A stretch of 20,000 nucleotides of DNA from Jimgerdemannia flammicorona (GCA_003990765.1 RBNJ01000007.1:47348-67347); one strand, 5' to 3'; positions 58 to 18,122 are shown, counted from the first letter of the stretch. Notes: generated by a model not told the origin, from the letters alone. Numbers and translations are program-made.

Positions 58-3193
<3,136 letters not shown>

Positions 3194-6018: not shown

Positions 6019-7023
6019 TTGATGGGCCCTGAGCGATGGGTACAGTTGTTTGCTTTTCTCTCCCCTGATTTTTCTTGTATATAGTGATATAGTGCGTTTG
6101 GTTTATCAGTGACACCGATATCGTTGTGTAATGTCAAATTCGCGGTTTATAAAGCCAGGTTAGTAATGCAATATTATGTTGTCAAGATGGTTAAAATGGT
6201 GTGCGTGTGATGGTAGTTGAGACTGGAGGAAGATTTCTTGAGTATAGATAAAATACACCTATTTTTAATAATATTTATGTTTGGTTAATTATACTTCTAT
6301 ATTACGAATACTGCCGTTATCACCTATCATTGCTGTTGTCCTGATCACTGCACAACTTGAGAAGACGCACTCCAGAAAATATCCTAGTTGGAACATGACT
6401 TTGATGACAGAGAAGCCAAACGAGAAGCAAGAGGGTATTCACGCCAATATTATTGAATATAATAAGTTTTGGAGATGAGCGAAATTGTTATACCGAGATG
6501 AAATCTCCCTCGAGACTCACAAATGACATCAAGGTCATAGGTCACGGTCCCCATGAAGACCGGGCAGGATCCGGTGCTTTGGGAGAGGCCGCAACATATC
6601 CTGCAGCAGACGCCGAGCATATCTTCTGAAAAAAAGGTCCCAGAACAATTGAAGACATTGACGGCGATGAATCGATCCTCGGCTTTTAAGCTGAGCCAGG
6701 CGATCATCCCCACTCTGATTTATTTGGGGTTATCGCTGTTGATAAGGATATTTGCTATAAATAATGGGTTTGGAAATATGATAGCAGGAGTGTACGTATC
6801 TTGATTATTACCAAATAACACTATTGCCAGCTAATAACTCCTGCGCCAAAAAACAGTCCGGTATATCAAGGACATTTCAAGATGAGTGCTCGGCCTCGTT
6901 TTCAACTATGCTGAGACATGTAGGTCATCCAAACGTTATCACGGATGCTGCGGACAAATATCATCTTCGGATGAAAGATGTCTATAATTGGGACTTTTGG
7001 GCAGTCGCGGAAAGTATTTGATA

Positions 7024-9196: not shown

Positions 9197-10445
9197 CTAC
9201 TCATTCCCCAGCAGATCCACCACCTTCCTCACCAAACTCTGCAACTGCTCGGCCCTCATCGCGCTCGTCGCCAATACCTCTTCATGGCTCGCCACTATCG
9301 TATCGGTATCTTCCTCAAAATCCTCCACATGCTCACCAGCCTCCCTCAGAACCTCCTTGAACGCGTCCTTGCCCCTCTTCGTCACCACCGCATTTGTTAC
9401 AAGGCTCAAACCCAGCACCTTGATCCCGCAATGGCGCGCCACCACCACCTCCGGCGCGGTTGACATGCCCACGGCGTCGCCGCCCAGGGAGCGCAAGTAC
9501 CTGGCCTCGGCGCGCGTCTCGTAGCTGGGTCCGGAGACGAAGGTGTAGACGCCCTCGCGGATCGAGTCCCGCGGAAAGCCCGTGGCCAGGGCCGCGCGGA
9601 AGGCGAGTTTGCGTAGGCTATAGGTATATGCATCAGAAGTCGGCGGGAAGCGCGGACCGAACTTGTCCAAATTGGGACCAACGAGGGGACTATTGCCCGC
9701 GAGGCCAGGAAGGGAGATGTGGTCGTTGATCACCATAATATCCCCCACCTTGAAAACCGGGTTAAGGCCGCCGGCGGCGTTGGTGACTGGTGGAAGTATG
9801 AGATAAATCAATCAGAACGATGGCCCCGTTACCCCACCCTCAACTACTTTCCTGAATTTTATTCCCAAAAGACAAGATGGTTGCTTACCAATCAGATTCT
9901 GCACCCCAAGCAATTTCATAATCCGCACAGGGAGCGTCACCTGCGACAAGTTATGACCCTCGTAAAAGTGGAAACGACCCACCATGCACACAGTTGGAGT
10001 CCGGTGCTCGCCAAGGAGGCCAAAGACGAGTTTACCGGTGTGACCGACGACTGGGAAGGTGTGAATCAACAAATGAATATGATCAGGGCATTGCAGTACG
10101 CTTTAGGTGGGGTTTTTCGACTTTGTCTATTATTATTAATTTTTTTTTTTTTTTCCATCAAACGAGTCAGAATGCCGCTCTGAACGGCACGACCGAGGCC
10201 TACAAATCACATCATTGAAAGAGCAACCCGATTTCCCAAAACTCACCAGTGCTCACAGCGAAACCCGGAATTTTCTCATATGGGAATTCCACCTTTGTCG
10301 CCACATCGATAGTATCCACAATCCCTCCCAGCCCGGAGCCGCAAATAATGCCGACCTTGACGTTCGGCGGATGGAAGTGGGCGGGAAGGTTGAGCAGGAA
10401 AAACTCGAGGGCTTTCTCGAAGACGACGTTGGATTGAGCTGACAT
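9197..10445 (-). CDS. PNP1: Purine nucleoside phosphorylase (trimeric type), ~316 aa. Exons 10445-10247, 10050-9889, 9786-9197
   Basis: GIICGSGLGG, IPGFAVSTVVGHTGKLVFG, GRFHFYEGH, VTNAAGGLNP, GPSYETRAE, DAVGMSTAPEV, SLVTN, HEEVL; GT-AG introns in frame. Confidence 0.96.
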
Positions 10446-10768
10446 TCTTATGCAGGTGAGTATACAAGGTGGGGAGAGGAAGGTGAAGAAAGTTCGGCGA
10501 AGGAATTTTATACCGTTTGTGGCTTGGTTCCTTATGAGCCTATCTCCATATTGTGGATAATTATGTATCAGTCCTCCGTCCCTCCCATCCGCGCAGAAGT
10601 TTCTACTCAAAATTTGTAAAGTTCTTCACTTTTTGACGCATATCTCATCTCAGTCAATGGACTAACCAACCGAGTGTGTAGTATCTCGATGACGTCAACC
10701 CCAAGTCAAGCCACCAGCGAAATTTCCTGCTCAACGCGCGCTCCATACTTCTTTCGCGTCACATCACC
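10446..10768. promoter_or_regulatory. Bidirectional promoter region PNP1/TFC1 with a palindromic CRE (TGACGTCA, 10690-10697)
   Basis: 323 bp between divergent ATGs; perfect ATF/CREB-type octamer. Function is inferred. Confidence 0.45.
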
Positions 10769-13677
10769 ATGTCCGCAGAATATCAACAGGCTGCCATCCT
10801 TCCACTACCAACAAATCAGTTCTTCGTGATAGAGTACCCAGGCTATGTCAAGAACATTGACAAGGTCATGCGCACCCTGGGTGGCCAACATGCTCTTAAT
10901 AAGGTAACATACCAGTCCAATCAATTCACCCCACCATCGGTCTTGAGATATGGATCCTCACGAATGCACTTTGGATGAAAGGCTATTAATGAAGATCGAG
11001 GTCTTCTAGAGCTTAGTTACCGGCCGGGAGACCCATTCTCGCACCCCATTAGCGGTGACGTTGTCTCAACCTCGAACCTACTACTCAAGGTGACCCGGCG
11101 ACGGAAAAAGAACACGACAAACATGGAGATGGATCAACCGGGGAACGATTTGGACATGGAAGAGGAAGACGAGGAGGATTCTGGAAATTTTAAGGCCGAG
11201 ATCATTGGTCTCATTACGAAGACATGCAGGTTTCGAGGTGTGTTCTCGGAGTATTTTTACTGGCCTTGCCCTCTGCTACATTTTCGCCTTGCGTTCGGCA
11301 ATATTCCTCATTCAATGACTGACTAATGAACCCCATTCGCGTTCCTGATTCATAGGAATGGCTGATTATCAATACATCGTTAACCCTACCGATTCAATTC
11401 CCAAACTGCGCCGCGCCATGCAAACTGGCGATAGTACGTCCCTAGCTCCTTTCATTCTTTAGATTATCGCCCATGATACCATGGATGTCTTATTCGGGCC
11501 ATTACACTCTGTCGTCCACCAGTCGAAACTATTACATCCTTCCGTCTCTCCAACGACGACGAGGACCACGATAACCCACGCAACATTCCGCCTCCTTCGT
11601 TCTCCAGGATCGAAACCCCTATGAACTACAGGTTCGTTTTGCAACTTAAACAGTATTGTTAATTAAAAAAAAAGTACCGTTATTTAGGCTTCATTATCTT
11701 TCTCTCTCTCTCTCTCTTCCTAGCTATCGCCAGAACACCGCCGTCGTCAAAGTCAAGATTCAGAGAGGCGACGGGCAGGTGCGTGGTTCAAAGTCTGATC
11801 AAGTCATTAATGCAAGTTGAATAGTGGCTGATTGCACAATCACTCTCTGATTTATCCGTGACCTCCTTGGGCCGCTTTTCTTTCAATTTCCCGAATACAG
11901 CCCCCTGTAATCAAGCTTATCAACCGTAGCAGAGGAGCGAAATTCTTGGTAGTGTCCATCGACCACAACACAAAAGATATCCTTTCTTTAGTCTTATGTG
12001 TTCCGGTGAGAGTGAATCTGAAGGTTCTGCCCACCTTCACCTCGGTTTTCCTTGACGAATGTGAACACATGTCCCCACCGCTCCGCCGACAGATATATCG
12101 AAGCCTCGGGAGGGCTTACTGCCCACGATTCTACAGCATTTCAAAGACGTGAGTGATTGTAGTGATGAAACCTGACAGTCACGCGTTTTTAATGACCTTC
12201 AAGATTGAGGTATCTTTTCGCCTTTGACGCAATCCTCAGCTGTTTGAGAGGCGGCCCATCTGGACCAGGCTTGCGCTGCATAATAATTTGCCTCCAGAAG
12301 CTCGGCCACACATTAAGAGGTGAGATGGTGATCCTTGCTGACATCTAGATTATGTTTGTTTACATTCTTCCCTTTTTGTTTATGTGCTTAACATTTCCAT
12401 TCGCCTAGGCTTCTCCCTCTGGTGGCTTATCTGATGGTGAGCGGTGCCTGGCGTGATTGCTGGATCAAGTACGGCGTCGACCCAAGGAAAGATCGCGAAT
12501 TGCGGTTGTATGTAGAATTCTCACGTTTTCGTTGTCGCCATCACATCTGTCATGCCGTAGTATGTGAGGTTCTTGTTCAGAGGTACAATATATCTCAAGA
12601 TCACATATTGATCCTTTCACCCCATCTGGCCTAGCTACCAACTTCTTGACGTCCGCAGCACAGCCAAACCGCGTTCTTTTGCTCGTGCGAAACGTACGAC
12701 CCACGTGCGACCCGACCCACTGATTGGGCAAGAGGTGGCTGCGATGGAAGGTGATAGCGAGGAGGAATCGTCCGTCAAACGGTTCGTTTCTCTTACCATC
12801 TGTTCTTCTCCCTGAAGGTTTTAGTTGCTCACAACTGTTGTATTAAACAGATTTCCGCCCGACCTGTCGCACATGTTCGATGGCAAGACAAAGCCTCGCG
12901 ATACAGGCATTTTTCAGATGTGCGATGTCACCGATCCGCAATTGCGGCCGTTAATTGAGACGAAGGACTATTTGAGGCCGATATGTAATGTGAGTTTCTG
13001 TCCAGGTTTGACTCAGGTACTAGGATCATCTCTCTCTCATGCCAGATTCTTGCGTTGGGTTCTGACTTCCTTTCTTTCTATCGTTTCGTAGAAAGAGGAC
13101 GGCTGGTACGACCACTCGATCGTGCACCGCCTCCGGCGCGTCATCCGCCGTAAGTTCACCGAGCTCCACAACGGTCATGTACCCCAGGAACAGGATTATC
13201 ACAAACTCGTGGAGGGTTTGGATGCCGGAGAGAACGAGGAAGAGGAGGAAAATGCCCCGGGCTTGGAAGAGACGGCCGGGACTACGGCAAAAGCAGGCAA
13301 GGAAAAGGATGGGGTTTCTGGGAAGGTGAGCAGGTTGATCTGGTATTGCGGTATCTATAATGCTACGTTTTGGTTGTGGCTCCCTTTTGATATTTTCTTT
13401 CCCGAATTTAATCTGCGGTATCCTTTTATAACCAGGTCGAAGAGCTCATGCGTAACCTACAACACGCCCAACAACAGGCGAAGGACTTCGATGGTATAGC
13501 TGGCTTTGTGTGTGTGTGTGTGTTGCTTTAGTGGTGTTCATTGTTATCTGATGCTCGGATTTCATTCCTTTGAATGGTTTAGGAGAATTTGAGCAAGAGT
13601 TTCCGATTGAGGAGGTGGAGGAATACGAGGATGTATTCGGCGAAGACGAAGACGAAGACGAAGAAGCGGAAGAATGA
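10769..13677 (+). CDS. TFC1: RNA polymerase III transcription factor TFIIIC subunit tau95 (Tfc1/Sfc1/GTF3C5), ~546 aa. 14 exons: 10769-10903, 10982-11237, 11356-11433, 11523-11631, 11724-11778, 11901-11976, 12069-12148, 12240-12319, 12409-12507, 12635-12781, 12851-12989, 13092-13325, 13436-13493, 13583-13677
   Basis: IEYPGYVKNIDKVMRTLGG, LELSYRPGDPFSHPI..SNLLLKV, RFRGMADYQY, IPPPSFSR, LFERRPIWTR, GAWRDCWIKYGVDPR..FYQLLDVR, FQMCDVTDP, DGWY and an acidic C-terminal tail. Exon lengths total 1641 nt (in frame). Confidence 0.92.
11977..12068 (+). other. U12-type (minor spliceosome) AT-AC intron, 92 nt, intron 6 of TFC1
   Basis: 5' site ATATCCTTT (11977-11985); branch site TTTTCCTTGAC (12046-12056); 3' end CAC at 12066-12068. 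Splicing restores the frame: HNTK-D-VPTAPP...HFKD|LFERRPIW. Confidence 0.88.
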
Positions 13678-13906
13678 GCGCGTTGGACGACATATAGTAT
13701 TGCGAACTCGGTATTCCGAGGACTAATGTAGAGAGTACGTGTACATAGATCACATGTGAATAGGAAATGAAAAGATTGCTGTTCCTTGGATTGAAGGAAT
13801 CTGTTATTGTAAACGATTGAATGTTGAAAGCTCTTACATATATTGGATAAAATACAATTACAGAAAACCGAGCAAAGAACATAAAAATCTCTTTTTATTT
13901 TCATAA

Positions 13907-15881: not shown

Positions 15882-18122
15882 ATGGGGTTTTTCAGTAAGA
15901 CAAAAACCAGCTTGACGTCTTCTTCCTACAAAATATTGAATCCAATCATGCCTTCCTCTTCCTCCATTCAAAAATTGTTCAACACAAGCGGGGTCTCTCT
16001 CTCGGGCCCCCCATGGCTTCGCTTTCCTTATCTTCTCTTCTTCTTGATCCTGCTCTCCTCTTATCAATCCTTCGTCGAGGCCACCCTAGCAGAAACTCAT
16101 ATTGTGCAAATCCACCCACGCTACTATGAACCCCATCTCCAGTGGCTGATAGACGATGATTCCTTCTCCCTCTCGTCCGAAGATCATCACTACGCCATCG
16201 GTGATGACTTTCGCGCCTACAGCACCGCCTTGACTGGAGATCAAATCGAGATGCTCAAGAAGAGGCCGGATGTGGTCGAGGTGTGGGAGGATGGGGAATT
16301 TACGGTTCACTTTGAGGAGGATACCGAAATGGATAAGGCAACAGGGAATGCGCATTGGAAACGAAGAAAAAATGACGATGACTATGAAATGCAAAGCGGT
16401 GCATCATGGGTAAGTTTTGATATTGGTAGTGTCGTCATTATCTCTGCCCTGCAAACAACAATGCCACTCACAATCCGTCCGCCCGCAGAATCTTGTTCGC
16501 ATCGCGCAAAGATACCTTCCCCTATCTGAGTTCTACACACTGCCGAAATCGGCCGGAAGAGGAGTAGATGTGTATGTGTTAGACAGGTGCGTTTTTGGCA
16601 TGTCTCTGTTCCTCTTGATCAATTCATGCGACATATGGTCGTTCGCGGGACAACACAATCAACACCGTTCTATTTATTTGCTTACCACCGCAAACATCAC
16701 AAGTGGTATCAACCTGAACCACACCGAATTCCTCAAGTTTGGCCTTTCTCGAGGCACCACGGCCAATCACGAAAGCAGCGAGGAAATCAGTCCCTTTACA
16801 GCCTCGCGAGCCAGGTGGGGTGCCACGGTGATACCACCCGCGAACGCAACCGAGGGTGTGGACAATTCGCTTCCCGACATTGATGAACTAGGACATGGAA
16901 CGCACGTTGCAGGTAGGGATGTGATTGAATTAAGTTAGTCATTTCCAGATTCATTCCTACCTCACATGTGCAAAGTTGTCATCGTAGGCATTATCGGTGG
17001 CAACACCTACGGTGTGGCCAAGGAGGCCAACCTCATCGCCGTCAAAATTTTGGGCAAGAACAAGAGTGGCAAATGGAGTTCGGTGCTGCAAGGACTTTCA
17101 TGGGTCTCTCAGGATGTGGCCAAAAACCGGAAGGAGAATAGGGCGGCGCGTGGGGTGGTTGCCAAGTAAGGCATCGACATTCGTCCTGAGGGGCTATAAT
17201 GTCACTCACCCTTTCTGCCTCTTGTCTCCTGCGCCTATACAAATTGCCGTGCCGATATTGCCTAATTCGACTCAATGCATAACGATAGCCTCAGCCTAGG
17301 CGGCCGCTTCTCCTCGCCCGTGAATGACGCTGTAAAGGCCATCATTGGGATTGGCGTGCACGTGGTAATCGCTGCGGGAAATTTTTACGGGGCGAATGCA
17401 TGCCTCAAAACACCAACAGCAGTGAGAGAAGGTGTGTTACGGATGCCTTCGTCATGGCAATGTGTATGGGTTCTTGTAAAAGAAATTTGGCTCGGATTAT
17501 GGTATTTACAATCGCAAGGTTAAAGTCCAGCTGACTCATGCTGATCGATACCGTTCCCCCCCCCAAAAAAAATGGTATCTACATTGCGAAGCTATCACGA
17601 CCGGTAGCACGAACCTTGAGGATCACATTTCCCTCTTCACAGCTTTGGGTCCTTGCGTCGACATTTTCGCGCCAGGTCAATATTTCGCATGTGGATGAGA
17701 CTTCTTTTTTTTTTTTTTTTTTTTTTTTTCTCTTGGACTGTTGTGGATGAGACTTCTGAACGTCCAATCTTTTATGCACCTACTTACAACCCAAATCAAC
17801 TGTTACCATATTACCCGCAACCATTCCATCCCCAATCTTTACCGCCACACCAACAGGCGAAAGGATTCCCTCGTGCTGGATCGGCTCCCTAACCGCGACT
17901 AAGGTCCTCCGCGGCACGTCCATGTCCTCCCCCCACGTAACCGGGATCATCGCGCTCGTGATCGGCGCGCTGGGCGACCTGGCGCCAGCGATGATGAAAC
18001 AGATCGTGTTGGGGGTCGCGACTGGTGGTGTGGTCAACGGGCCGCTGGAAGGGTCGGGGAACCTGCTGGCGTACAATAAGGTGGAGGTGCAGGAAGAAAT
18101 AGGGCCGGTAGAGAGAACCTGA
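15882..18122 (+). CDS. Subtilisin-like serine protease (peptidase S8, proteinase K-like) with I9-type propeptide, ~501 aa (alternative start 15948). Exons 15882-16409, 16489-16586, 16704-16912, 16988-17165, 17289-17431, 17592-17675, 17857-18122
   Basis: Catalytic triad motifs VDVYVLDSGI, GHGTHVAGII and RGTSMSSPHV; NLSLGG, AAGN oxyanion motif, CVDIFAPG. Prodomain ends LKKRPDVVEVWEDGEF; hydrophobic N-terminal segment. Confidence 0.92.
17690..17757 (-). mobile_element. Severely 5'-truncated non-LTR retroinsertion (12 nt + poly-A) with a 16-bp target-site duplication, in protease intron 6
   Basis: TGTGGATGAGACTTCT at 17690-17705 and 17742-17757 flanks T24-CTCTTGGACTGT (minus strand ACAGTCCAAGAG-A24). 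Confidence 0.75.

Follow-up and report, generated by a model that had tools for sequence, protein, structure and literature searches.

An AT-AC intron with U12-type signals in the TFIIIC tau95 gene of an early-diverging fungus

Results

Genes in the Window

The window, i.e., the whole stretch of DNA that was analyzed (20 kb, G+C content about 48%), contains a gene for the tau95 subunit of TFIIIC and the following neighbors.

114-536, minus strand: exon of an AMP deaminase gene that runs off the window (PF19326, E = 8.7e-18)
2189-3190, plus strand: ALAD (delta-aminolevulinate dehydratase), one uninterrupted frame of 334 codons (Pfam, E = 7.9e-125)
9200-10625, minus strand: purine-nucleoside-phosphorylase-family gene, head-to-head with tau95 (PNP_UDP_1, E = 1.8e-36)
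10769-13677, plus strand: coding region of TFIIIC tau95 (Tfc1/Sfc1/GTF3C5-like), 14 exons, 13 introns, 546 amino acids
15879-18122, plus strand: subtilase gene of several exons (separate frames match the Inhibitor_I9 propeptide at E = 1.8e-05 and Peptidase_S8 at E = 1.9e-07)

The single-exon ALAD gene and the tau95 gene with its 13 introns are found only 8 kb apart.

The tau95 model, which was built from RNA joints and stop-to-stop frames, is an open frame of 546 residues from the ATG at 10769 to the stop codon at 13675-13677. A Pfam match to Tau95_N (PF17682) is found in exon 2 (E = 1.2e-18), and matches to the Tau95 HTH domain (PF09734) are found in exons 8 (E = 7e-05) and 9 (E = 2.7e-12). 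Because both defining domains, i.e., the Tau95_N triple barrel and the Tau95 HTH, are present, the gene is, judged by its predicted product, that of the tau95 subunit (Tfc1/Sfc1/GTF3C5). Alignments of the entire protein were obtained with tau95 from Glomeromycotina and from Basidiobolus (47% identity to the latter). The gene assignment given in a preliminary description of this DNA, as well as its numbering of exon 6 and intron 6, thus holds in the 14-exon model. Simple repeats are located in intron 4, (CT)n at 11688-11729, and in intron 13, (GT)n at 13496-13532, and the GAA/GAC-rich acidic codons at 13633-13675 encode the C-terminus.

Sequence Signals of Intron 6

In the 14-exon model, 12 of the introns start with GT and end with AG. 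The remaining one, intron 6, is bounded by AT and AC and is described by the following elements, all on the plus strand.

11901-11976: exon 6, ending ...ACA AAA G, phase 1 (sequence, RNA joints and gene model)
11977-12068: intron 6, AT-AC, 92 nt, very probably U12-type (joint 11976 to 12069 in contigs of runs X1 and X2)
11977-11985: 5' splice site ATATCCTTT (U12 consensus RTATCCTT), directly at the RNA-verified exon-intron boundary
12046-12056: branch-point sequence TTTTCCTTGAC, presumed branch A at 12055 (match to TCCTTRAC)
12057-12068: 12-nt tail GAATGTGAACAC with an AC end, free of a polypyrimidine tract (sequence)
12069-12148: exon 7, whose initial AT completes the Asp codon that precedes a conserved V-P-x-x-P-P (RNA joint, model and alignments)
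12149-12239: ordinary GT..AG intron, leading into LFERRPIW (RNA joint)

The sequence RTATCCTT is the U12-type 5' splice-site consensus. In PMC3584512, this consensus is treated as a defining feature of the class, and the optimal distance from branch point to 3' splice site is given as 11-13 nt. The presumed branch point A12055, the single A of TTTTCCTTGAC, is found 13 nt from the 3' end of intron 6, i.e., inside that published optimum (PMC3584512). Intron 6 combines the RTATCCTT 5' splice site, the TCCTTRAC branch sequence, the short 3' distance and the lack of a pyrimidine tract with AT-AC ends at which excision is observed. The intron lies in phase 1 after residue 236, and its length of 92 nt is not a multiple of 3.

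AT-AC termini as such are also found in introns of the U2 type, and AT-AC introns that depend on U2 have been described (Wu & Krainer 1997, cited in PMC3584512), so that intron 6 might be removed by the major spliceosome and carry no information on a minor one. We consider this very unlikely: U2-type AT-AC introns by definition lack the RTATCCTT 5' splice site and the TCCTTRAC branch sequence near the 3' end, whereas intron 6 has both, at full consensus and at the right spacing. Furthermore, conservation of the intron across distant orthologues is confined to these two signals (see below), and the 12 other tau95 introns have ordinary GT 5' sites.

The expected frequency of the motifs was estimated by shuffling. 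Over both strands of the 20 kb, RTATCCTT is found five times, compared to 1.05 expected (five were reached by 1 of 200 shuffles), and TCCTTRAC three times in the window, compared to 1.22 expected (three were reached by 27 of 200). An RTATCCTT followed by a TCCTTRAC within about 100-110 nt occurs at intron 6 and nowhere else in the window; from the motif rates, roughly 0.004 such ordered pairs would be expected per window. Both motifs of intron 6 coincide with splice boundaries that are verified in RNA.

The other RTATCCTT sites were rejected as minor introns. Those at 6744 (minus strand), 14082 and 18890 have no TCCTTRAC partner and are not found at splice sites, and GTATCCTT at 13418 resides inside intron 12, also without such a partner. 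The excess of RTATCCTT in the window (5 vs 1.05) is unexplained and may be due to chance; the copy at 11977 is the only one that is a splice site.

RNA Evidence for the Splice

Parts of tau95 were found in six runs, and the contigs of X1-X4 were aligned to positions 10500-13900. Runs X1 and X2 represent one organism in two studies (0.39 and 0.36 of the sampled words, respectively) and were used as assembled contigs, not reads, which are blind to rare isoforms, to the level of retention and to strand. The joint from 11976 to 12069, which skips 92 nt bounded by AT..AC, is found in one X1 contig (depth 345.6) and in one X2 contig (depth 53.9), with 79 letters on its shorter side. Both the intron and exon 7 start with AT, which leaves an ambiguity of 2 nt in the joint; TA..CA or AT..AT would fit the contigs just as well, and AT..AC was chosen only because it matches the consensus. 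With this choice within the 2-nt ambiguity, the pre-mRNA is shown to be cut exactly at G/ATATCCTTT and CAC/AT, where the slash marks the cut.

Across tau95, 11 joints are listed, 10 of them GT..AG and one AT..AC. The introns at 11632-11723 and 13494-13582 are missing from this list, in which repeats were skipped, and the coordinates of a 2231-nt X1 contig fit both exactly (289 and 59 record letters, respectively, between the pieces that flank them). This contig lacks every tau95 intron, and its piece coordinates are consistent with the 14-exon model. Within the bin 11982-12095, the depth is 81.8 in X1, i.e., 345.6 x 27/114, where 27/114 is the share of exon 7 in the bin, and 12.8 in X2. This depth is that of exon-7 cover alone, and therefore no X1 or X2 contig covers the interior of intron 6, which argues that both sets of contigs are derived from transcripts, the run type being on record only as a guess of RNA.

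Given that guess, X1 and X2 could be DNA runs, and the joined form could be a processed copy or contaminating cDNA-like sequence rather than mRNA of the locus. This explanation is highly improbable. The X1 and X2 records lack every tau95 intron and, unlike in a DNA run, no X1 contig extends over the interior of any intron; the depth is high (345.6 and 53.9), and the same joints are obtained from two runs of two studies that carry different single-base variants. In addition, introns 1 and 2 are missing, with identical GT..AG joints, from the contigs of X3 and X4, two root metatranscriptomes registered as RNA; these contigs cover exons 1-3 and 12 only, and the AT-AC site is located outside them.

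The preliminary description had placed a U12-type AT-AC intron at 11977-12068 from sequence statements that all hold, and had proposed that its junction be sought in transcripts; that junction was found in contigs of two runs from two studies. Its frame argument is also borne out: removal of the 92 nt yields ...K-D-V-P-T-A-P-P (KDVPTAPP), the frame is kept into the next exon, and the GT..AG intron at 12149-12239 leads into LFERRPIW. The outcome that it had named as contrary, i.e., use of the GTGAGA donor near 12006 or retention of the segment, is seen in no contig of X1-X4.

The short X3 and X4 contigs, at 10700-11416 and 13092-13334, are mostly at least 99% identical to the window and lack introns 1 and 2; these root samples contain transcripts of the window fungus or of one very closely related to it. 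At the other end of the alignment, the tau95 contig of X1 extends 253 letters beyond 10500 into the neighboring purine-nucleoside-phosphorylase-family gene; either the two transcripts overlap at their 5' ends or the assembly merged them.

Orthologous Introns in Relatives

A search of metagenome contigs with a profile of 13 tau95 proteins yielded six loci (L001-L006), five of which cover the site. The position of the intron could thus be compared across orthologues, as had been suggested in advance, and the same AT-AC intron was found in four of the five: in L001, L003, L004 and L005, ATATCCTT is located at the same codon and in phase 1 and, as in the window, follows base 1 of the codon just before V/I-P-x-x-P-P. 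The orthologous intron is complete in L001 (101 nt), L003 (69 nt) and L005 (70 nt), and all three display a U12 branch motif, i.e., TTCCTTAAC, TATCTTAAC or TTCCTTGAC, with the A 11, 9 and 11 nt, respectively, from a terminal AC. The L004 contig ends before the 3' part of the intron, and L006 begins downstream of the AT-AC site.

When the four complete introns (that of the window and those of L001, L003 and L005) are aligned, ATATCCTT (the first eight bases) and the terminal AC are invariant and the branch motif is conserved at 7 of 9 positions, whereas the interiors cannot be aligned. The relatives share with intron 6 the codon, the phase and the 5' end, but differ in length (69-101 nt compared to 92 nt), in G+C content (0.24-0.33 compared to 0.45) and in their interiors.

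Loci L001, L004 and L005 have a G+C content of 0.29-0.30 and contain segments up to 78-81% identical to tau95 of Rhizophagus irregularis; L003 has a G+C content of 0.39, and its exon 7 is similar to that of a Paraglomus model. By protein identity, the hosts of these four loci are probably Glomeromycotina-like fungi. At L002 (positions 1491-1871, G+C 0.32), an uninterrupted frame extends across the positions of window introns 6-9, which means that the minor intron and the introns next to it were lost in some relative. As judged from these comparisons, the tau95 AT-AC intron is apparently ancient and common to Mucoromycota subphyla.

Placement of the Fungus

The placement of the fungus is based on a single-gene tree and on identities, not on phylogenomics. 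Among the matches listed for ALAD, the best named ones are all from Mucorales (67-75% identity); the values are 68% for Basidiobolus and 64-68% for Dikarya and Glomeromycotina. In a tree of 38 ALAD proteins, hand-chosen from 120 listed, a clade with support 98/96 unites the window protein with two unnamed proteins and every Mucorales row; the window protein lies outside the Mucorales clade itself (100/96) and apart from the Dikarya clade. Window tau95 is closest to that of Basidiobolus and Glomeromycotina (45-49% identity), and identity to Basidiomycota is 32-36%. The tree and the tau95 identities therefore point to an early-diverging fungus, affiliated with Mucoromycotina and outside the sampled Mucorales, in agreement with the earlier proposal of an early-diverging Mucoromycota fungus. 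That the organism is instead a dikaryon (Ascomycota or Basidiomycota), in which case the intron would contradict the presumed absence of minor splicing from Dikarya, is hardly credible, since the intron density and the G+C content are not diagnostic and the ALAD matches, the ALAD tree and the tau95 identities all stand against it.

Consequences for the Reading Frame and for Gene Models

Retention of intron 6 shifts the frame and leads to a stop codon at 12150-12152, before the Tau95 HTH domain, and full-length tau95 therefore requires that the intron is spliced. The junction is found one codon upstream of a V/I-P-x-x-P-P motif that is conserved across fungi. In the region 11910-12147 (exons 6-7), there are 36 GT/GC..AG pairs that keep the frame; none reproduces the true junction, and all 36 lose V-P-x-x-P-P. 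The GTGAGA at 12006 was rejected as a real donor, as it is used in no contig and all of these alternatives drop the conserved motif.

Gene models were surveyed by aligning 126 tau95 proteins with the spliced window protein and reading the alignment by eye at the site. Orthologues from Mucorales, Umbelopsis, Basidiobolus, chytrids and animals were considered at the protein level. Twenty public Glomeromycotina models cover the site, and 14 of these are disturbed exactly there, i.e., they are split, truncated or contain substitute residues; the other six (P0128, P0131, P0139, P0140, P0142 and P0143) are smooth. Translated, A followed by ATATCCTT gives N-I-L, and these three residues stand at the site in two of the disturbed models, those of Diversispora epigaea (P0122) and Funneliformis geosporum (P0124). 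The expectation that gene callers confined to GT-AG introns would mis-model tau95 is supported both by the 36 alternatives in the window and by the 14 of 20 disturbed models.

Three tau95 models of Apophysomyces differ from each other at the site: of P0205, P0211 and P0215, one continues intact through it, another is missing the V-P segment, and the third stops at this point. At the level of protein models, these differences hint at an intron that is difficult to model in a member of the Mucorales as well.

Discussion

The data presented above make it highly likely that positions 11977-12068 are a genuine U12-type AT-AC intron, intron 6 of tau95, in a Mucoromycota fungus that is near but outside Mucorales. 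In minor splicing, the 5' site and the branch site are recognized by the U11/U12 di-snRNP (PMC3584512). By this established mechanism, U11 would pair with ATATCCTTT and U12 with TTCCTTGAC, bulging A12055, 13 nt from the 3' end, after which U4atac/U6atac.U5 would catalyze both steps. The G in TTCCTTGAC presumably forms a G-U wobble with U12 at the position where the consensus has a pairing A, and the same G variant is found in L005. An Rfam scan of the 20-kb window at E<=1 identified no snRNA, the only match being a sub-threshold one to a fluoride riboswitch at 16978-17049. As the preliminary description had proposed, the genome would encode U11, U12, U4atac and U6atac elsewhere, to judge from what has been published on related lineages.

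Minor splicing in Mucoromycota has been in the literature since 2006-2010. Minor snRNAs and EST-supported U12 introns are described for Rhizopus oryzae and Phycomyces blakesleeanus (PMC2846911). These Mucorales introns resemble that of the window in that AT-AC types (besides GT-AG) are among them and their hosts, of the same phylum, possess U12-type snRNAs, but the window fungus resides outside Mucorales. In Rhizophagus irregularis and Basidiobolus meristosporus, 205 and 249 minor introns, respectively, were predicted (Larue & Roy 2023, PMC10639083), and the former is reported to have all four minor snRNAs; for Ascomycota and Basidiomycota, the same source gives no convincing minor introns. 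The introns of Rhizophagus and Basidiobolus have a 5' splice site and a branch consensus as in animals and plants and are biased away from phase 0 (PMC10639083), and the window intron is found in phase 1, but in a different lineage, affiliated with Mucoromycotina and outside Mucorales. An orthologous Rhizophagus tau95 intron may already be part of the PMC10639083 catalogue.

A third case is that of the mucoromycote Bifiguratus adelaidae, the one Mucoromycotina species outside Mucorales in an annotation-based survey (PMC11347168, Table S4), which has genes for U11, U12 and U6atac and yet no annotated "minor" introns, with 45 classified as "minor-like" (PMC11347168, Tables S4/S7). The count of zero implies that minor introns in this lineage are few or that they were missed by annotation.

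From these reports (PMC2846911, PMC10639083 and PMC11347168), in which minor introns and snRNAs are documented for Mucoromycota, a minor intron in tau95 is to be expected, and the class is not new. What seems to be new is the tau95 intron itself, its conservation across Mucoromycota subphyla and the scale of mis-annotation, although the supplements of PMC10639083 and PMC2846911 could list the intron. In the literature searched, GTF3C5 was not found paired with a minor intron, nor TFIIIC with a U12-type intron, with the same reservation as to these supplements. An Ensembl identifier taken to be that of human GTF3C5 is absent from the PMC11347168 supplement, including the table of human minor-intron orthology (S8), which is a weak negative.

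A more far-reaching proposal, which we regard as unlikely when taken as a whole, is that the tau95 minor intron predates the split of Mucoromycotina and Glomeromycotina, that it has been kept because slow minor splicing throttles TFIIIC and thereby Pol III, and that it is a sign of further, hidden minor introns in a lineage of Mucoromycotina for which the annotation survey counted none despite U11, U12 and U6atac. If this were true, RNA-aware re-annotation would resolve the mismatch between the zero count of minor introns and the presence of these snRNA genes.

The known range of minor splicing is unchanged by the present results because Mucoromycota were already known to have it. They add a transcript-verified minor intron, very likely of the U12 type, in the gene of an essential Pol III factor from a little-sampled branch of Mucoromycota, and indicate that this intron is old and common to fungi of the arbuscular-mycorrhizal type. 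The tau95 site is also a recurring annotation error, and surveys of minor introns that rely on such annotations will under-count them.
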